Source of the DNA: Pseudomonadota bacterium
GTDB lineage: Bacteria > Bdellovibrionota_B > Oligoflexia > Silvanigrellales > Silvanigrellaceae
NCBI GenBank assembly: GCA_039799905.1
Contig: JBDLRP010000045.1
Coordinates: 32,564-96,563 of the forward strand
Reading direction: 5' to 3'
Length of the DNA: 64,000 nucleotides
Program-made: the position numbers and the translations under genes
Notes under the pieces: generated by a model
What the model was told of the DNA's origin: nothing
Seen by the model: only the letters and a program-made list of their open reading frames with translations
The model's database searches: none
Part shown: piece after piece, positions 31,819-52,301 of the stretch
Position numbering within the stretch: the stretch's first letter is position 1
Layout: every line of letters starts with the position of its first letter

Positions 31819-32709
31819 CTAGACTCCCAAGCGCGTAAGCCGTTCTTTCGAAGCCTTGCATTCCGCTTTGTCGGGATACAGACGGACGCATTCTGAGTAC
31901 AAAGCCTTCGCAGCACGCAGTTGCTTGAGATACACACAGCTGTCTCCCGCAAGCAACAAGGCGCGCGGTTTTCTTTCAAAACTGGGGTATTTTTCAATTA
32001 TTTCCATGAGATCAATTGCTGCTTTGTCGTAGTTTTGCAATTGAAACTGCGCCTCGGCTCGAAATTCCATTGCAAGAGTTTTCATTGCCTCAGAAGATGA
32101 ACTGCCAATCACTCCGGTCGCAATCTTGACGACCTTCGCGTATTCCTTTTGCGCATATGCGGAGCTCAGTTGCTTGGCGAGTTCTTCACGGTTTTTAACG
32201 CTCAGTGGGCTTTTAGCCTTGCCGTTGGAGTCGGTTGCGGTCTTTGCCAGCAGCTCGGTCTTGGTCAGTCGCTTTTCAACTTTGTTTTGCCAGTCGTCGA
32301 GCTCGGACATTTTCGCCACGGCGGAATCATCGCTGAGCGACTTTGCATTCAGGCTGCCAGAGTTTGCTCCATCCTGTATGCGCATCATTTTTACGCGCAA
32401 TTCGTCGATGGCTCCCTGAGTCATACCCAGCTGGCGCCGCACTTCGTCGAGCTCGTTCTTGGCGGTCAGATACTTGCGTGAAGACTCTTCGGATGTGTTT
32501 TTAACCGCATCCACAGTTCGGTCCCGCAGATGGACTTGTTTTTCCATTTCAATCAGCCGGATCTCCAAAGATTTCAGCTGGGCGTTGAGCTCCTCTTCAC
32601 GCTGGGACGTCATGCATGCCGTGTTCAGCAGACTGAAGAGGCCTGCTCCGAGCAGAGAAAAAGTTCGGATTATATGTGTTTTACGGGTACTATTGTCGTT
32701 TTTACTCAT
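31819..32709 (-). CDS. CpoB/YbgF-like coiled-coil plus TPR lipoprotein
   Basis: Lipobox-like NTAC; coiled coil; C-terminal TPRs (IEKYP....P.ALL..G, YP...E...SKERL). Confidence 0.7.
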   Translation of the reverse strand: MSKNDNSTRKTHIIRTFSLLGAGLFSLLNTACMTSQREEELNAQLKSLEIRLIEMEKQVHLRDRTVDAVKNTSEESSRKYLTAKNELDEVRRQLGMTQGAIDELRVKMMRIQDGANSGSLNAKSLSDDSAVAKMSELDDWQNKVEKRLTKTELLAKTATDSNGKAKSPLSVKNREELAKQLSSAYAQKEYAKVVKIATGVIGSSSSEAMKTLAMEFRAEAQFQLQNYDKAAIDLMEIIEKYPSFERKPRALLLAGDSCVYLKQLRAAKALYSECVRLYPDKAECKASKERLTRLGV

Positions 32710-43935: not shown

Positions 43936-43963
43936 ACGCTCACGTTTGTGAGCGTTTTTTTTT
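43936..43963 (+). terminator. Intrinsic terminator after gap
   Basis: ACGCTCAC-GTTT-GTGAGCGT followed by a T run. Confidence 0.85.
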
Positions 43964-45056
43964 ATTCGCTGTCTGCCTGAAGCCGGCTGCGTCCGTACCA
44001 AAATCTGCGATGATGTGCTTTGCGCAGGGCAGACTGCGCGAGGCGATTCAACAATTGGTCATAGTCGTATCCAGCAGCCTCGGCCATTTTTGGCAGCACA
44101 CTATAATAGTAGGAGAGTCCGGCCAGCGGATTGACCTCGAGCAAGAATGGCCGACCGTGCCCATCCAATTTCCAATCGAATCGGGCAAAATCTTCAAGAC
44201 CAACTCTCTGCTGCAAAATATGCATCGACTTTTCGATGATAGACCGAGTTTCGGTGGATAATTTGGGAAAGCTTATTTTTTCGCCCATTTCGTCTTTGCT
44301 TTTGTTTGCGAGCCCATAGACTCCTGTTGGGACTTCTATCTGCGCAATCGGCAGACTCTCGAACGGGGCGTGACCCAAAAAAGCGGATGTGAGTTCAGCT
44401 CCGGTCAGCAACTCTTCAATCAGCAGGCCGTCAGGGAATGCGCTCAGCATTCGTATGCAGGTTTCGCGGGATGCCAAGACGGTTCTAGGAATTGAAGTTT
44501 CAGCATCGATTCCCATACCCGAACCCTCGCAATCCGGTTTTATAAAGTGCGGACGCGCGAGGAAAGCATCCGGCAGATTTTCCACATCCTCAAGAGATTG
44601 AACCACTCGAAACTCGGGAGTTGGAATTCCGTTATAATGGCAGATGATTTTAAAGGTGCTTTTTCGCATGGCCATGCATTGTGCAAATGGAGGGCTGCCG
44701 ATGAACGGTATTCCCGATAGTTCACACAGCGCTGGAATCCACGCTTCGCGAGATGGTGTGCCCCAACCCTCGGTGAGTGTGTGCACGAGATCGGTTTGCG
44801 AAACACAGCTCGACCATTGAATCAGGAAATTTTTATCCAGTGGAAGTTCGATAACTTCATATCCGTTCTTTCTCCAGCCCGCGGAGATTCGCTCAATGGT
44901 TTGCCGAGTCTCCCATTCTGCCTCGGCATCCGACGGAAACGGATGCTTATCGTTTCGTACGAGTTTTTCAGGCAGATCAAAGATAAGTGCGATCGTTTGT
45001 TGTCTGTCTGATTTGCCAGAATCGATCTGCGGATTCATTTTTGTCTCCGTGTGCAT
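43962..45056 (-). CDS. D-alanine--D-alanine ligase-family ATP-grasp protein
   Basis: REA.IPALCE..GIPFIGS, FIKP..EGSGMGI, LIEE.L.G.E, ARFD, LEVNPL.G. Confidence 0.85.
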   Translation of the reverse strand: MHTETKMNPQIDSGKSDRQQTIALIFDLPEKLVRNDKHPFPSDAEAEWETRQTIERISAGWRKNGYEVIELPLDKNFLIQWSSCVSQTDLVHTLTEGWGTPSREAWIPALCELSGIPFIGSPPFAQCMAMRKSTFKIICHYNGIPTPEFRVVQSLEDVENLPDAFLARPHFIKPDCEGSGMGIDAETSIPRTVLASRETCIRMLSAFPDGLLIEELLTGAELTSAFLGHAPFESLPIAQIEVPTGVYGLANKSKDEMGEKISFPKLSTETRSIIEKSMHILQQRVGLEDFARFDWKLDGHGRPFLLEVNPLAGLSYYYSVLPKMAEAAGYDYDQLLNRLAQSALRKAHHRRFWYGRSRLQADSE

Positions 45057-45272: not shown

Positions 45273-45707
45273 ATGGCAGAAGTAAAGAAGGCCGCTCCAA
45301 AAAAGGTGGCCAAGGTAAAGAAGGCAGCCAAGAAACCAGCGGTGAAAAAAACCGTTAAGAAAAAGACTGCGGCGAAAAAACCTGCAGCTAAGAAAACGGC
45401 AGCCAAGAAAACTGCGGTAAAGAAAACTGCAGCAAAGAAGACAGTAAAGAAGGCTGCTAAGAAGACTGTTAAGAAGGCCGCCAAAAAGACAGTCAAGAAG
45501 ACCGCAGCTAAAAAGCCTGCAAAAAAGAAAACAGCTGCGAAGGCCAAGAAGGCTGTAAAAGCAAAAAAAGCAGCCGCTCCTAAAAAACGCGGCCGTCCTA
45601 GCAAGCTCGAGAAGCTTCGTCAGACCCACCGCCGCGGTCGTCCGCGCAAGGGCGCTGCGAAGGCTCATGCTTCCGAAGGCGGAATGGGCGAGTCCGGACA
45701 GCTCTAA
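45273..45707 (+). CDS. Histone H1-like Lys/Ala-rich protein with two AT-hook motifs
   Basis: AAGGAG SD; KKTAA/KKTV repeats; KKRGRPSK and RRGRPRK. Confidence 0.85.
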   Translation: MAEVKKAAPKKVAKVKKAAKKPAVKKTVKKKTAAKKPAAKKTAAKKTAVKKTAAKKTVKKAAKKTVKKAAKKTVKKTAAKKPAKKKTAAKAKKAVKAKKAAAPKKRGRPSKLEKLRQTHRRGRPRKGAAKAHASEGGMGESGQL

Positions 45708-45777: not shown

Positions 45778-46902
45778 ATGTTTATTGAAGATAGTCATCT
45801 CGCAGACCACCCGAATTGGGTGAATGTTCTTCTCGCTTGGTATGACCAACACAAGCGGGACTTTCCTTGGCGTCGCAAAATCGATGTTTATCATACGTGG
45901 ATCTGTGAGGTGATGAGCCAACAGACCACTATGGCCGTTGTTGTTCCGCGTTTTGAACGATTCGTCGCGACCCTGCCCGATGTAACATCGCTGGCTGACT
46001 GTTCGGAAGATCTTCTGCGCGAGCTGTGGTCTGGATTGGGCTACTATGCGCGCGCAAGAAATCTGCGCAATGGTGCACGCTATATCGTGACTGAGCGCGG
46101 TGGTCACTTTCCGGCCAATTATGAGCAATGGCTGACGGTGCCGGGAGTAGGGCCATACACTGCAAGCGTTATAGCAAGCATCTGCGCGCGCGAAGCGAAA
46201 GCCTGTGTCGATGGAAATGTCATTCGCGTGGTCGCACGCTTGGCCGGTTTTTCGTCCACTGAAGTCTGGTCGGAGCTTGGCAAGAAAAGCATTCAGGGCA
46301 TTGCTGACCGTTTTATCGATCACGACCGTCCGGGAGATTTCAATCAGGCGATGATGGAACTGGGTGCAACGCTGTGTCAGAAGCAGTCGCCGGGCTGTGG
46401 ACGCTGTCCGATCAAAACCGTCTGTCGCGCTTCTCAACTTGGAATAGTCGCCCAGTGCCCGCCCAACAAACCTCGAAAGCAAACGGAATTTGTCGAGCTC
46501 GATGCGCTGCGTGTGAGTTCTCCCGCCGCGGGTGGAAATGAACAGTATCTTCTCGTTGCAAGAAAACGTGGTTTTTTGAGCGAGACGGTCGGCTTCCCGC
46601 TTTTTCCCGAGACAGATCGCTCTTCGCTGCACACTTGGTTGAAAGAAAATGTGCACGTGAGATCTGTGCAAATCAGCAGCGAAGAACCATCTCATACCAT
46701 AACCAACCATCGTATTTCAGTGCGGGTTGTTGATGTCGAGTTGTTCGAAGGGGCAGACTTGTCGAGCGAATTTGTGCGACACTTTTCTCAGCGGTTTGCG
46801 GAGTCAGTCACCGACTGCCGCTGGGTGTCAAAATCCCTCACAAAAAAGACTGTGGCGTCTTCGCTGGATCGCAAGATTTGGGAAAATATTGCCCTCTTTT
46901 GA
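45778..46902 (+). CDS. mutY: A/G-specific adenine glycosylase
   Basis: RDFPWR, EVMSQQT, W.GLGYY.RARNL, PGVGPYTA, VDGNV.RV, NQAMMELGATLC..QSP.C..CP....C. Confidence 0.96.
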   Translation: MFIEDSHLADHPNWVNVLLAWYDQHKRDFPWRRKIDVYHTWICEVMSQQTTMAVVVPRFERFVATLPDVTSLADCSEDLLRELWSGLGYYARARNLRNGARYIVTERGGHFPANYEQWLTVPGVGPYTASVIASICAREAKACVDGNVIRVVARLAGFSSTEVWSELGKKSIQGIADRFIDHDRPGDFNQAMMELGATLCQKQSPGCGRCPIKTVCRASQLGIVAQCPPNKPRKQTEFVELDALRVSSPAAGGNEQYLLVARKRGFLSETVGFPLFPETDRSSLHTWLKENVHVRSVQISSEEPSHTITNHRISVRVVDVELFEGADLSSEFVRHFSQRFAESVTDCRWVSKSLTKKTVASSLDRKIWENIALF

Positions 46903-46989
46903 CGGAACGCACCAATTTCATTTCAGAAGTAAACCGATTAGCATGGAGAGCGCGGGTCGCGTAAAGGCTAATTTTTGAGGACGTGCTGT

Positions 46990-49476
46990 ATGGGAACCTC
47001 ATCCACGATTCTTTCTCCGTATATCAATGGCCGGTTTCTCAAACTTGAAAAACCTGAACGCATTTTTCATGCGAACAATCCTGTCAAGCCGCTAGATGTG
47101 CTGGCGGTTACTGGCTGGAACAAGGATCTCGTCGGTGAAATTGTCGACTCTGCGAAGCGAGCACAGGTTCAGTTTGCCGCACAATCGCTTTCGTCGCGCA
47201 TGCAATTTGTCAATTCAATCATAAGCAACCTCAGGCAGAGTGCCGATGAGTTGCGCAGTCAGATGATGCTTGAACTTGGCCGCTCGCGTTGGGCGGTCGA
47301 ACGCGAGTGGGAGCTGTGTGAGGAGATCTTCCGCCACCTACCGCGTTTCTGCTCAGACGAATTGTCTCCGCAAAAGTCAGAGCTTGGTTGGAATTGGACC
47401 TATGCTCCCGTCGGTTTGGTGCTTATCAGCACCAACGTCGCGCTACCGGTCTACACTGCGCTTTTCAGTATTCTGACGTCACTCGCTGCTGGCAATTCAG
47501 TTTGTTTCCGGCCTTCGGCCCATTGCCCGTTGTCGGCATCGTTGATTGCAAGCTGCATCCATCAGGCGAATCCCCCGGCTGGACTCGTTCAGGTTGTCTA
47601 TGGTGACCTGGAAGTTTACCGGAGGCTCGTTCTGTCTCATCAGTTCGATACAATTTTTTATACCGGTGGCGAGGAATCTCTTGAACAGCTGCGGCGTGAC
47701 ATGTCGACCGACCAGAACGTGCGTCTGGTTTTGTGCGGCGGTGGTAAAAATGCTGCGATTATTTCTGCGGATGCGAATCTTGATGAATGCGTCCAAAAGG
47801 TTCTACTTGGTGCCTGCTTGGATGCGGGGCAGCGTCTCGAATCTACAGGTTTGGCTTTTGTCGACCATCGGGTGGTGGACGCGTTCGTCGACAAATTTGT
47901 GAAAGCGGTCAAGCAGATGCCAATTGGAGTTAAAAATGAGCTCGCCGACCCGACGCAGCATGTGATGGGGCCGCTGTGCAGTCAAACTTCTTGGGATCGG
48001 TTTCTCCGTTTTCAGGGCATCGCAGCGCGTGAGTCCGGTGAAACGCTGCGCTGGGGCAAAGCCATCGATAATCCGGGCGGCGGTTTTTTTGTCTCGCCGG
48101 GAGTGCATTTGCTCAGCAATGACAAAATAAAGAGCAGCGTCTACGCCTCGAATGCCTTCTTTGCTCCTGATGTTGCCATTGTGCCCGTAGACAGCATTGA
48201 TGCGGCCGTGCAGACCATCAACGATCTCTCCAGCTCCCGGTCGGTTTCGGTCTTTTCACACAACGAGTCAACAGTGCTGAACGTTCGCCGACACTGTGTT
48301 GCTCCGCTTGTTCTCAATGCACAGGCGACGACCGAAATGCATCCGCTGATGCCCACCATGGGACGCGGCAAGGCAGGCAATTCGTGTGTGATGGGACTCC
48401 GCTTCTTGCATCACACTGTCTATCCGCAGACGCTCAATATGAATTCGACTCCGACAGCATCTTCGCCGGGCAGCACACCCGCAAAAAGCTCTTCCGGAAA
48501 TTTGAAGTCAAGTGTTTCCAAGGGCAGCAAGGCGCTCGGAGCGTTGATTGCAATGGTGAGTCTCGCCGGTGGATTCCTGTCCGCAGAGGCGCGTGCGGAC
48601 TATCGCAAATCAGTAGAAGGCAATGAAGTCGTCAAAGGCAAGTTCTACACAAAGAAGGGCCGCATCCAGCTGAATGGTGGCGGGGGGCTGATTCTCAACC
48701 AATCGTTCATCAATACCTTTCTTTTCGGTGGTTCGGGAACCTACCATATCGATGAATGGCATGGCATCAACTTTGAATTTCTTGTCGGCAAGTCATTCGA
48801 CAAGAGCGACCGTGTCTGCGTCGAGAATTTTTATCTCGACACTGACTACGCAGCCCGTAATGCGGACCAGAATCCCGGGGCTGCTGCATCTTGCCCGCAA
48901 GGGTTGCCTGCCACCAGCGCTCCCAAGGATGCGGCCGTTTTGGAGCCCGGTTACGGTTCGCCTGAAGAAGGGACACAGGATCAGAAAAAAATCGACATCA
49001 ACCCGAAATATTATGAGACCCGCGCACCGTTTCAGAAAAATGCCGCATACATGCCAATCCGCGAAATCAATTTTTTGGGCGCGGTCAATTATCAATGGAC
49101 TCCAGTTTACGGTAAATCCCTGTTCTTTCTGTCTCAGGTTGTCTACCTTGATTTTTACCTAAATGTGGGAGCAGGGCTCGCTTTCAGCAATTTCTATCCG
49201 CTCAAGGATACACTTGAGGTTGACGGCAAAACCGTGAACATGAAAGACGTCGGGACTACCGACAGCAACCAGTATGGAGTTGAAGGACGACCCCAGCCAC
49301 TCGCACAAACCAGCCCGATGGCAAGCTTTGCCTTCGGCAGCCGCTTTTACATGGCACGGCGCTATCTCATCGACATCCAGTTGAAGAATTTTACCATCAT
49401 CGGCAGCGACGGACGCGGTGGCACAGACTTCAGCGCGCCATTGTCGCTGACCGGTGGTATCGGACTCCTGCTCTGA
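46990..49476 (+). CDS. Degenerate aldehyde dehydrogenase domain fused to internal signal peptide and outer-membrane beta-barrel
   Basis: ALDH fold motifs (APVG, LAAGNSV, PAGLVQVV.G, GGKNA, GQR, MGPL, GGFFVSP); barrel motifs (FY.K.GR.QL, N..F, YH.DEW, WTP.YGK, DFY..VGAG); ATG 46990 after GAGGA. Confidence 0.8.
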   Translation: MGTSSTILSPYINGRFLKLEKPERIFHANNPVKPLDVLAVTGWNKDLVGEIVDSAKRAQVQFAAQSLSSRMQFVNSIISNLRQSADELRSQMMLELGRSRWAVEREWELCEEIFRHLPRFCSDELSPQKSELGWNWTYAPVGLVLISTNVALPVYTALFSILTSLAAGNSVCFRPSAHCPLSASLIASCIHQANPPAGLVQVVYGDLEVYRRLVLSHQFDTIFYTGGEESLEQLRRDMSTDQNVRLVLCGGGKNAAIISADANLDECVQKVLLGACLDAGQRLESTGLAFVDHRVVDAFVDKFVKAVKQMPIGVKNELADPTQHVMGPLCSQTSWDRFLRFQGIAARESGETLRWGKAIDNPGGGFFVSPGVHLLSNDKIKSSVYASNAFFAPDVAIVPVDSIDAAVQTINDLSSSRSVSVFSHNESTVLNVRRHCVAPLVLNAQATTEMHPLMPTMGRGKAGNSCVMGLRFLHHTVYPQTLNMNSTPTASSPGSTPAKSSSGNLKSSVSKGSKALGALIAMVSLAGGFLSAEARADYRKSVEGNEVVKGKFYTKKGRIQLNGGGGLILNQSFINTFLFGGSGTYHIDEWHGINFEFLVGKSFDKSDRVCVENFYLDTDYAARNADQNPGAAASCPQGLPATSAPKDAAVLEPGYGSPEEGTQDQKKIDINPKYYETRAPFQKNAAYMPIREINFLGAVNYQWTPVYGKSLFFLSQVVYLDFYLNVGAGLAFSNFYPLKDTLEVDGKTVNMKDVGTTDSNQYGVEGRPQPLAQTSPMASFAFGSRFYMARRYLIDIQLKNFTIIGSDGRGGTDFSAPLSLTGGIGLLL

Positions 49477-50606
49477 TGGCGATTTTGGTGGTGCCTCCCA
49501 CTCAGGTCATTCCGTTTGATTCTGAGCGCCTCGTCAGGCATCAACAAACCATGGATGAATTTCGTTCATCGCTTGCCAAGCAATGGAATGCAACCGCAGG
49601 TGATGAAGTTAAATTCGGAGCCCACCGCCGCACCCGTGACTACAAATGGAATGAATCGTTTGATGGGATACTTCGCACCTATTTTGTTTTTGCGGGCAGC
49701 GGAAAAACAGCCGACACAGAAGTCGCGCGCATCGCTGTGCTCTTTCGCAAGGACAACTGCCAGATGCTGGGCAGCAGCGTTGTCTGGGGAGCCGAATGGA
49801 AAAACTCTCTGCCCGTGGATTTAAAGGCTACGGAGTCGACGAATTTTGCAGCAGCCTCGAGCCGCAAATTCGACGTGAGAAAGTCACCGTTGCGTCTGAG
49901 CCTCGAAACTTTTGGTTATTGGGGACCATCGCTCGCGTGGTTGAGTGAGGCGTTTGTCGGTGAAAAGCTCTCTGCCGAAGGCTACATTGTGCACTCAGAT
50001 TTATCCGGACTGACCTGTTTTCGTCAGTCTGCCGGTGCTCAATCGGATGCGGGTGCGAGTGGAACTGTTGGCGAGAAGGTTGTCGGGGCAGACTCGACTG
50101 CGCAAAAGTCGACGGTGCAGGGCGCGCCATTATTGAAGCGCGGACATCGTCAATTGCGGATGCGGCTTACGGGCAAGAAGCCGGACCAGACTCAAAAGTG
50201 GCCGCTCATGAGTGGCCAGTTGAAGATTTTTTCACTTCCCTTCAATGCTCCTCGAAAGTCGGCTGAACTGACATCCGGCAAGCCGGAGCCATTCAATCCT
50301 GAGAAAATCGCTGCGCTGGCTGTCGAGGAAATTCGCAATCACACTCAGAATCTTGATGACAAGGCAATAAAAGTCACTCGCCGGGAAGGGCGCTTTGTGA
50401 CTGTGGATCGCGGCGCGGCATTTGGTTTGAAGATCGGCATGCATCTGACCGGTCCGAATGGTTCTGCGCTCCATGTGATCCGCTTTGATCCTGCCGCCGG
50501 AAGCGATGACGCCGCTATTTTGCTGATTCGAAAGGATTCTTCGGGGCAGCCTCTCGGCGAAGGTGCAGTCTTGCAAGTCGACGGCACTCAATATCCCGCC
50601 CGCTGA
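49476..50606 (+). CDS. Hypothetical protein, C-terminus resembling FlgT C-terminal-like domains
   Basis: TGATG overlap with the upstream gene; V.VDRG...GLKIG.HL motif. Confidence 0.6.
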   Translation: MAILVVPPTQVIPFDSERLVRHQQTMDEFRSSLAKQWNATAGDEVKFGAHRRTRDYKWNESFDGILRTYFVFAGSGKTADTEVARIAVLFRKDNCQMLGSSVVWGAEWKNSLPVDLKATESTNFAAASSRKFDVRKSPLRLSLETFGYWGPSLAWLSEAFVGEKLSAEGYIVHSDLSGLTCFRQSAGAQSDAGASGTVGEKVVGADSTAQKSTVQGAPLLKRGHRQLRMRLTGKKPDQTQKWPLMSGQLKIFSLPFNAPRKSAELTSGKPEPFNPEKIAALAVEEIRNHTQNLDDKAIKVTRREGRFVTVDRGAAFGLKIGMHLTGPNGSALHVIRFDPAAGSDDAAILLIRKDSSGQPLGEGAVLQVDGTQYPAR

Positions 50607-50636
50607 GTTTCAATTACAATGCGGGCTCTTGGGTTG

Positions 50637-52301
50637 TCATTCAGGTTTTCCGACACGGACCTTTTGCAGAGTGGTGCTGCCTGAAATCGCGGGCTGCGAG
50701 TTGTTGTCCTGAGCAGCCTTTTTGACTGAACTGAGTTGCGTCGCGATTCCAAGCTGCGCAAGCCGCGATTCGAATTCCTTGTCGCGTCGAAGGTTTTCCA
50801 AATCACTGTCGGTTCCCGCTTGATCGCGCAGGATGTCACTCATGAAAACCGCCGTTTTCAAACTTTCAAAGGCTTCAGATTTTCGCCCCAGGAGGCTCAG
50901 CAGACAAGCTTTGTTGTAGTGGTACGGAGCATGTTCGGGCTTCTGTTTGATGGCTGTTTCAAAGTCGCGCAACGCAATCTCATATTTGGTCGCCAGATAT
51001 GAAGCCTGACCGCGGGCCGAATAGAGATCGTCGCGTTCCGGTGCCAGAGCGATGGCCGAACTCAGGTGTTCAACTGTGCTCTGATAATCCTTCATCTGCG
51101 ATGCAATCATTGCCAGCGCAAGATGTGCGTCTTCAAGAAGTGGGTTGTTGAGGGCGGTTCTCTGCAGGGCAGAGGAGATCAACGCCAGCTGGTTGCTGTC
51201 CCGAAAAGTCTCAACAATCTGCGCAACCCGCGCTTCGTTGCTGATACTCAATTCCAACGCACGCTCCGCATGCAGTTTTGCAAAGGGCAAATCATTTGCA
51301 GCAAGGTGCGCGAATGCCGCGTGACTTTCAACTAGTGCGCGCGAATCGTCGCTCAAAAGGCGTTGCGCGCCTATGACTTTTATCAATGCCTCGAGTCTTT
51401 GTGCTGCGGCGCGAGGCGTCTTCATTTCCTTATATTCGAGAATGGCGAGCTGTAACGGACTCTCGAGCGTATTTCCGAGTGCGATGGCTCGCTCGAACGC
51501 GTGTTTTGCAGAGTTCCAGTTTTTTTGTCCGGCATATGCCATCGCTGCCCGGTGCCAAAGCCAGCGGTCCGGATAGACCTCCGCAAACCGCTGCAGTGCC
51601 TCGCCACTCTTTTCCTCTCCGTGAGCCCTGACAATCGCGTTGCCGATCCACGGAGAGAGTTCTTGTACTGAGTAGCCTTTGGAAATCGCATTCTGGGCCG
51701 CTACAAGGGCACGCTGAGGATCGACTTCTGCCCAAAGACGCGCATCAAAGGCGAGTGTTTCGATGTGCTCGGGATAAACCTGCCGTGCGCTTGTGTACAG
51801 TCTGAATGCTTCCGTCTGTCGGCCAATCGTCAGCAGGACCTCAACACCCAAGTACTCGCCCACCGGACTGTTGGGTTCGAGTTCCTTACTTGACTCTGCC
51901 ATCGCGGCAGCACGCTGCAAAGCTGATAGACCAGCGCGCCCCAAAGAATAATCGGTGAGCCATAGGCGGCCGAGCTCTGCGTACGCTTCTGGGCAGGTGC
52001 GGCAGATTCGCGTTGCTTCTACAAGGTGCTGTTCGGCCAACGATCTCTCTTCGGGGACAGCATTTGCTAGCAAAAGCTTCGCAAGATCGACGAGTTTTTT
52101 TGCCTTCTGAGATGGGCTGTTGTTGAAGCCGGACTGCTGTGCTGCCTCTGCTGCGAAAGCATTTGGACTTTTTTGCGCAACAAGCGCTAAAAAGCCGATG
52201 GAGCACAATTGGATATTCCTCCGCAATGCCCGCACACCCACCTCGTGTCTGTGTGAACATCCTCTCTGTCGCAAGAAATTCAACAGAGTCGGGACGATCA
52301 C
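50637..52301 (-). CDS. TPR-repeat protein, probably exported
   Basis: Multiple TPRs; terminal YNKAC...LG....A...L..A........A..DSDL..LR...F motif. Confidence 0.85.
   Translation of the reverse strand: MIVPTLLNFLRQRGCSHRHEVGVRALRRNIQLCSIGFLALVAQKSPNAFAAEAAQQSGFNNSPSQKAKKLVDLAKLLLANAVPEERSLAEQHLVEATRICRTCPEAYAELGRLWLTDYSLGRAGLSALQRAAAMAESSKELEPNSPVGEYLGVEVLLTIGRQTEAFRLYTSARQVYPEHIETLAFDARLWAEVDPQRALVAAQNAISKGYSVQELSPWIGNAIVRAHGEEKSGEALQRFAEVYPDRWLWHRAAMAYAGQKNWNSAKHAFERAIALGNTLESPLQLAILEYKEMKTPRAAAQRLEALIKVIGAQRLLSDDSRALVESHAAFAHLAANDLPFAKLHAERALELSISNEARVAQIVETFRDSNQLALISSALQRTALNNPLLEDAHLALAMIASQMKDYQSTVEHLSSAIALAPERDDLYSARGQASYLATKYEIALRDFETAIKQKPEHAPYHYNKACLLSLLGRKSEAFESLKTAVFMSDILRDQAGTDSDLENLRRDKEFESRLAQLGIATQLSSVKKAAQDNNSQPAISGSTTLQKVRVGKPE

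Follow-up and report, generated by a model that had tools for sequence, protein, structure and literature searches.

The locus and its features

The subject of this study is a gene fusion located in a 64,000-nucleotide stretch of a metagenome assembly (positions 32,564 to 96,563 of contig JBDLRP010000045.1, from a member of the Silvanigrellaceae, Oligoflexia), which is called here the window. A single stop-free frame on the forward strand (46990-49476) encodes a protein of 828 amino acids (P0001), in which a full-length aldehyde dehydrogenase (ALDH) fold lacking its catalytic residues is followed by a linker, a predicted internal signal peptide and an outer-membrane beta-barrel. An initial annotation, made from the letters alone, had described one such frame with an uninterrupted ALDH half, and both were found as described. 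The elements of this open reading frame (ORF) are the following.

46990-49476, forward: fused ORF of 828 amino acids (P0001), its frame kept without stops in relatives
46977-46981, forward: Shine-Dalgarno (SD) site of the ORF start (GAGGA), free energy (dG) -8.6 kcal/mol
46990-48441, forward: pseudo-aldehyde dehydrogenase domain, residues 1-484 (PF00171, structure model, and the ratio of nonsynonymous to synonymous substitution rates, dN/dS)
47440-47442, forward: Ala151 at the position of the oxyanion Asn (alignment to the active ALDH 10fm_A, codon)
47734-47736, forward: Cys249 at the position of the general-base Glu (10fm_A alignment; codon TGC)
47836-47841, forward: Leu283 at the position of the catalytic Cys, then the invariant Glu284 (10fm_A alignment; codon CTC at 47836)
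48439-48441, forward: Met484, candidate internal start (ATG in 13/13 same-genus loci; SD dG at or above 0 in 13/13)
48442-48519, forward: Ser/Thr/Pro-rich linker, variable in length and sequence (dN/dS 0.23; low predicted local distance difference test score, pLDDT, at residues 490-510)
48520-48597, forward: predicted internal signal peptide of the Sec/signal peptidase I type, with a basic n-region, an h-region at residues 515-530 and AxA before Asp537 (Ala conservation, model helix 512-530)
48598-49473, forward: mature 8-stranded outer-membrane barrel, TIGR04565-like, residues 537-828, with a loop Cys pair at 48817 and 48892 (profile, model, Cys counts)

An ATG with an SD dG of -5.5 or lower was present at the corresponding place in all 19 loci that include the ORF start. 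The junction of the two halves was covered by contigs of run X4, which belongs to a separate study (48337-48745, no indels listed), and 46915-50700 was spanned gap-free by single contigs of X1 and X2, possibly the own source of the window. The RNA runs X15 and X20, both from one study, gave contigs of depth 2-5 that touched both halves and the junction and were uninformative on transcription or starts; the small-share runs X18-X22 were excluded.

The aldehyde dehydrogenase half

The Pfam family Aldedh (PF00171) matched residues 24-477 (E 2e-58, 198 bits against a cut-off of 23), and the best ALDH profile matches of the protein were of the GucD and AstD types. The AlphaFold model of the chain, built on 37 fused homologs (mean pLDDT 81), began with an ALDH fold and ended in a barrel, with disorder at 490-510 and a helix at 512-530 between them; the ALDH fold was of full length with its three domains, and Foldseek comparison of the model with ALDHs gave template modelling scores of about 0.85 of target.

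The catalytic triad Asn/Glu/Cys of active ALDHs was not found, its places being taken by Ala151, Cys249 and Leu283, and the acidic motif ahead of FxP reads NAFFAP. The losses of the Cys, the Glu and the acidic motif had been reported in the initial annotation and were confirmed, the first two by the codons CTC and TGC; the loss of the oxyanion Asn was recognized here. These replacements are a property of the family: in 69 family proteins, fused or unfused, the catalytic-Cys position never held Cys, the adjacent Glu284 was always present (69/69), and the general-base position carried Cys in 62 and Glu in none. A rebuilt active site with Cys249 and Glu284, standing roughly in each other's places, is possible, and it should be read with the fact that Cys249 is not invariant. 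In active ALDHs two Glu residues bind the cofactor; in P0001, judged by sequence, the basic residue and the glycine motif of the Rossmann part of the NAD(P) site are partly kept, and both cofactor Glu are replaced.

The ALDH of other Oligoflexia kept the Cys in most loci read and has Gln in place of the Glu. Since the unfused proteins of the family are also devoid of the Cys, and other Oligoflexia have already exchanged the Glu for Gln, the loss of catalysis had set in before the fusion. The atypical ALDH was single-copy in 91 of 131 Oligoflexia genomes.

Despite its lost triad the ALDH half was the best conserved part of the chain. From the single unsaturated pair of loci (L001, L002) a dN/dS of 0.012 was obtained for the ALDH and of 0.038 for the barrel, with higher values in the linker (0.23) and the signal (0.26), and in 12 same-genus loci the proportion of nonsynonymous differences in the ALDH was 0.094 at a saturated synonymous proportion of 0.79. 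Both halves are under purifying selection, and the fusion is old and selected.

The linker and the internal signal peptide

The Ser/Thr/Pro-rich linker and the signal peptide lie where the initial annotation had placed them, the signal extending from Lys511 (48520) to Ala536 (48597). Its features were assessed by our own hydropathy and motif counts in 46 fused homologs. Of these, 43 had Ala at position -1 and 30 had it at position -3, the counts at the other 23 positions being 14 at most. The best 11-residue hydropathy was at least 2.08 in all 46 internal signals, in 38 no other 17-mer of the chain was more hydrophobic than the signal, and a net positive charge preceded the hydrophobic segment in 41. 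The distance between the end of the ALDH and the mature site varied from 25 to 64 residues, and in every one of the 46 the hydrophobic segment stood ahead of the residue where stand-alone orthologs of the barrel begin after their own N-terminal signal. The signal features have thus persisted while the sequences of the signal and the linker drifted. A higher hydrophobicity of the internal signal was considered as a sign of adaptation and was rejected, as the comparison with stand-alone signals showed none.

The barrel half and its relation to Agl-Glt-type systems

The barrel matched TIGR04565 (OMP_myx_plus) with E 4e-14. Its fused orthologs in six genomes (G010, G002, G006, G012, G013 and G019) pass the curated cut-off of this profile at 60.5-64.9 bits, hence the window barrel is regarded as a divergent TIGR04565 relative. 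Folded alone, it gave 8 long strands with pLDDT 85-97 over the strands, and the closest structures were the OmpA and OmpW barrels. The last residue was Phe in 32/46 and Leu in 14/46, in line with a hydrophobic C-terminal strand, and at least two Cys were present in 44/46 barrels, which is expected for a loop disulfide formed outside the cytoplasm. The mature N-terminus of the fused barrel equals that of the stand-alone orthologs past their own signal peptides, and the fused barrel is the sole copy of its ortholog in the genome. A match to SSL4 (E 0.01, cut-off 485) was judged to be chance. Duplicated barrels were seen twice: P0086 stands alone, bears a signal and is nearly a copy of the fused barrel of P0040, and a tandem pair occurs in G043 (L034:4426-6155).

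Two further TIGR04565 barrels are encoded in the genome, each immediately 5' of a GltC-like gene, and one of these paralog clusters contains also TolQ/TolR-like (AglRQS-type), GltD-, GltE- and GltG-like genes. These Agl-Glt-like clusters are located at L087:998-12183 (contig C41 of the genome) and L086:9566-16361 (contig C25). The affinity to the Glt-related barrels, which the initial annotation had recognized from motifs, was upheld both by the profile match and by the two paralogs. Upstream of the second cluster a tandem of ArsA/GET3-family ATPases (BagA- and BagB-like, L086:3997-6194) stands directly before an mlaEFD-like set.

In Myxococcus, according to PMC11761067, the barrels GltA, GltB and GltH make up the outer-membrane part of the gliding machinery, and gltA and gltB are described as common to Myxococcus and Bdellovibrio in PMC3169522. 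The fused barrel resembles GltA, GltB and GltH of M. xanthus as these are portrayed there, in being a small outer-membrane barrel and one of three paralogs per genome; it differs from them in its long Cys-containing loop, its off-cluster position and its fusion, the Myxococcus proteins being encoded by separate genes with N-terminal signals.

The occurrence of the fused barrel follows that of the Agl-Glt system: it was present in 19/19 family genomes outside one genus, g5, and in 0/13 genomes of g5, related genomes not being independent cases. Paralogous TIGR04565 barrels were found in 1/13 g5 genomes and under the cut-off, and matches to the GltG profile numbered at most one, and short, in g5 as compared to 4-11 in the other genera. 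The genus g5 seems to have lost the Agl-Glt system, and the fused barrel is likely to be the third, long-loop barrel of an Agl-Glt-type envelope machine, as far as profiles and co-occurrence can indicate.

Distribution and origin of the fusion

Among 12 other genomes of the same genus the whole stop-free frame was found in 10. On a broken contig of G005 a single frame covers residues 312-828, and a contig end of G009 retains no more than the final 66 residues, so that the fusion was stop-free in 11/12 and not assessable in the remaining one. It was found also in 7/7 genomes of six further Silvanigrellaceae genera (G013-G015, G017, G019, G020, and G018 across a contig break). The 80 matches of a protein search comprised 45 fused clusters (736-832 amino acids, 40-95% identity), 23 stand-alone proteins (477-516 amino acids) and 12 distant ALDH or PutA proteins. 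Sequence sources label the fused proteins either as aldehyde dehydrogenase or as outer membrane beta-barrel. P0082 (196 amino acids, 63% identity) consists of the C-terminal part alone and might be a split form; P0083-P0085, on short contigs, resemble cut fusions.

In the genus g5 the stand-alone ALDH was present in 12/13 genomes. A short and mostly Lys-rich tail closes this protein, which has no hydrophobic or transmembrane segment, and no barrel or signal remnant was found behind it in 57 frames of 19 loci (best E 3). Named Fluviispira and Silvanigrella records likewise carry the unfused dead ALDH (P0048, P0052, L078, L079). The stand-alone g5 proteins formed one clade. The fused proteins formed one clade in 0/200 bootstrap trees, the bootstrap being not settled, and such a clade was not rejected by the approximately unbiased test (p 0.46). 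On these sequence data a fused ancestor with secondary loss of the barrel in g5 is favoured.

Outside the family the barrel ortholog stands alone in 88/98 genomes of the class and is fused in 0/88. A 444-residue open frame over the barrel in G083 was rejected as a fusion, since this gene stands alone and has a Met and a signal of its own. The region about 5 kb upstream was read in 49 stand-alone loci (40 chosen to span families, 9 fetched earlier), and ALDH, phosphoglucomutase (PGM) and barrel followed one another in 22, PGM without the ALDH lay upstream in 16, and the remaining 11 had neither gene. In the genome of the window the PGM ortholog is on another contig, C36. Most likely the fusion arose when the PGM gene left its place between the ALDH and barrel genes and the ALDH frame became continuous with that of the barrel's signal peptide. 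In other Oligoflexia (L031-L036, L050) the row consists of a GYF_2-domain gene, the atypical ALDH (Glu replaced by Gln, Cys kept), PGM and the barrel, ending against ssb.

The barrel was found also without an ALDH match in several lineages: in family f7, for example, the barrel occurs in 4/4 and the ALDH in 0/4 genomes, and in family f6 in 20/22 and 8/22, respectively. Because the dead ALDH exists without the barrel in g5, and the barrel without an ALDH match in f7 and most of f6, the two halves do not need each other.

Neighbouring genes and the upstream motif

The surroundings of the fused ORF contain three further features.

45778-46902, forward: mutY-like glycosylase gene, upstream neighbour conserved in the family (HhH-GPD and HHH matches, gene order)
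46912-46945, forward: near-invariant intergenic motif, likely promoter or regulator site of the fused ORF (aligned in 12/12 same-genus loci)
49476-50606, forward: downstream gene whose start overlaps the stop of the fused ORF, conserved neighbour in the family (gene order)

The intergenic motif comprises 33 bases that are near-invariant despite saturated synonymous sites; it occurs in a single copy in the genome and has a TAGCAT hexamer at its end. It shows no match to the sigma-70 consensus, and a promoter scan of the site gave nothing above chance. The downstream gene encodes 376 amino acids and is retained in g5 as well; its product had no Pfam or NCBIfam match, its Atlas look-alikes were unnamed, and CsgG/LpoB-like leads were weak. 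Further upstream of mutY a Lys/Ala-rich histone-like protein of 144 amino acids (45273-45707) is conserved in the family, and a D-Ala-D-Ala-ligase-like ORF, judged by eye (43962-45056, reverse strand), which lies next to gap, is conserved in 6 of the compared loci.

Discussion

We consider it probable that the fused gene encodes a polyprotein, with Sec as its insertion route and signal peptidase I as the enzyme that would separate a barrel bound for the outer membrane from a pseudo-ALDH staying inside, and that the fusion serves as packaging of two genes, not as a sensor circuit. The chain is encoded by one ORF with one strong ribosome site, and both of its halves are under purifying selection. 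The internal helix, emerging after 510 residues, would act as a signal anchor of N-in/C-out orientation, comparable to those of type II membrane proteins. Signal peptidase I would then cut after Ala536, and the released barrel would form its loop disulfide and be assembled by the beta-barrel assembly machinery (BAM), to serve as the third, long-loop barrel of an Agl-Glt-type machinery. At the last and weakest step the stub of ALDH and signal might remain in the inner membrane, or RseP might free a soluble pseudo-ALDH, whose basic tail would resemble that of the unfused g5 protein. LepB, RseP, Ffh and BamA are all encoded in the genome, and E. coli RseP clears remnant signal peptides, as stated in PMC8144685. 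The fusion is read as packaging because its halves occur independently and the older gene row explains it by the removal of PGM; its effect would be a fixed 1:1 synthesis of the two halves.

Several points weigh against this reading. The internal h-region is not more hydrophobic than the N-terminal signals of 28 site-locatable stand-alone orthologs (median 2.59 versus 2.69, p 0.11), the uncharged run is 18 residues in the internal and 16 in the stand-alone signals, and the efficient recognition of a signal so deep within a chain is putative. Cleavage, topology and localisation of the chain are predicted. Pure packaging alone does not explain the retention of the fusion across seven genera. With regard to the proposed role of the barrel, the window protein falls under the TIGR04565 cut-off (53 versus 60 bits), and the locus has no gltC/gltK or gltD-G beside it, its neighbours being mutY and the uncharacterised downstream gene. 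Finally, in the genus of the window Met484 is invariant with weakly folded RNA around it in most loci, and the invariant Val467 (GTG in 10/13) and Leu473 (TTG in 9/13) are the most start-codon-rich of all invariant Val/Leu columns.

The latter observations would suit an internal start near the end of the ALDH, which would yield an ordinary pre-barrel, the full-length chain mainly supplying the ALDH and its barrel tail being exported or degraded. An in-frame start codon does stand ahead of the h-region in every same-genus locus, and the GTG of Val467 has an SD dG of -4 or lower in 6 of them. On the other hand, 69% of 158 unambiguous starts in this organism reach -4 kcal/mol and 4% are at or above 0, and Met484 is without SD in all 13 loci. 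Met is absent from position 484 in most other genera, and the unfused proteins have Leu there, therefore Met484 reads as part of the last ALDH strand, which Met or another hydrophobic residue suits. Val467 and Leu473 belong to the folded ALDH, and most other genera have no start codon at either place; moreover, GTG makes up 45% of Val-before-Met codons genome-wide, so the codon context accounts for part of their richness in start codons. In 16/46 fused proteins Met is missing from the stretch that links the end of the ALDH with the h-region, and one locus (L014) has no ATG, GTG or TTG in the 84 codons before the mature site. A junction start with an SD of -4 or lower was found in 13/20 distinct loci at differing places and in none of the other seven, as against 58/114 control windows inside the ALDH, and windowed synonymous conservation around the junction was at the 51st-76th percentile of the gene, without excess. 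An internal start cannot be the family-wide mechanism; within the genus of the window it is possible, and as a whole we consider this explanation rather unlikely. The preference of the initial annotation for a polyprotein over an internal start agrees with the conserved -1 Ala and the lack of a shared internal start, and the internal start that it had listed as an alternative survives for the genus only.

The polyprotein could also couple its halves: a tethered pseudo-ALDH, or its rebuilt Cys249/Glu284 site, would bind NAD(H), an aldehyde or another cytoplasmic ligand and gate the targeting, the signal peptidase release or the stability of the gliding barrel, so that barrel output tracks metabolism in an RsiV-like manner. 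The stronger conservation of the ALDH half relative to the barrel, its partly retained Rossmann motifs, the adjacency of the ALDH and barrel genes beside the GYF_2-domain gene before the fusion and the persistence of the fusion in seven genera would fit such a circuit. The replacement of the two Glu that in active enzymes hold the cofactor speaks against it, as does a linker unconstrained in both length and sequence; in addition, g5 has retained the dead ALDH with neither a barrel nor a membrane anchor, and elsewhere the barrel persists without an ALDH match. The initial annotation's proposal that a sensor of aldehydes or NAD governs barrel production was not supported by this comparison, and both the coupling in general and the gated release of the barrel in particular are doubtful. 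Internal signals can be poor substrates of signal peptidase, hence the helix might be a permanent inner-membrane anchor with the barrel left attached or degraded; however, the -1 and -3 Ala are kept far above the neighbouring positions, the barrel is strongly purified by selection and is the only ortholog copy, and the approximately 20 residues from the helix to the first strand are too short to span the periplasm, which makes an uncut chain very improbable. The origin of the window from a metagenome assembly might raise the suspicion of an assembly error, or of a recent neutral loss of a stop codon before a decaying ALDH, the lost stop being another alternative of the initial annotation. Its chance is practically negligible: the error is ruled out by the independent, indel-free contigs of the read runs and by the identical frame, without a stop, in 18 further genomes and 45 clusters, a recent stop loss by the presence of the fusion in relatives of seven genera, and neutral decay by the dN/dS of 0.012.

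Internal-signal polyproteins are already known from FbcH of Bradyrhizobium japonicum, the precursor of cytochrome b and cytochrome c1, where two proteins are contained in one chain by way of an internal signal peptide. As in FbcH, the halves of the present protein are separate genes in relatives, they are joined through the signal peptide of the downstream protein, signal peptidase would be the cutter, and the internal signal has conserved -3 and -1 positions with no conserved internal start. The first half of FbcH is a polytopic inner-membrane protein and both of its products enter one complex. In the present chain a soluble pseudo-enzyme of 480 residues is followed by an outer-membrane protein, with no evident shared complex. 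It is this combination, a soluble pseudo-enzyme first and an outer-membrane barrel second, that sets the protein apart from FbcH.

Parallels exist also for the separate steps. The vertebrate ALDH16A1, as presented in PMC12041015, has an ALDH fold that is under selection without the Asn/Glu/Cys triad, and a regulatory or scaffolding role was proposed for it; ALDH16 has an extra Rossmann-like C-terminal domain that is absent here, and its loss of catalysis was independent. The anti-sigma factor RsiV of Bacillus subtilis (PMC6066255) provides a precedent, in that signal peptidase cuts this membrane protein although its cytoplasmic N-terminal part has a function of its own, and a site-2 protease then acts on the remaining stub; unlike the present protein, RsiV has a short cytoplasmic part and a ligand-gated cleavage, and its outer part is a receptor instead of an outer-membrane barrel. 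No account of an ALDH-barrel fusion was found in the literature searched, a search that left most subscription journals and all supplements outside.

Outer-membrane barrels normally carry an N-terminal signal and are exported unfolded. In the Silvanigrellaceae a whole family of freshwater bacteria appears, from its gene structure, to export a barrel from behind a folded cytoplasmic domain of 52 kDa. If confirmed, this would mean that a signal placed 510 residues into a chain is acceptable to Sec, signal peptidase I and BAM, that a cytoplasmic protein can become permanently linked to an outer-membrane one by gene fusion, and that such genes are wrongly filed in databases, as ALDH or barrel alone. 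Our analysis also brought to light an atypical ALDH that is single-copy across the class, and cultured carriers of its unfused dead form exist. The apparent loss of the Agl-Glt system in g5 predicts gliding in the uncultured genera of the family and none in g5.

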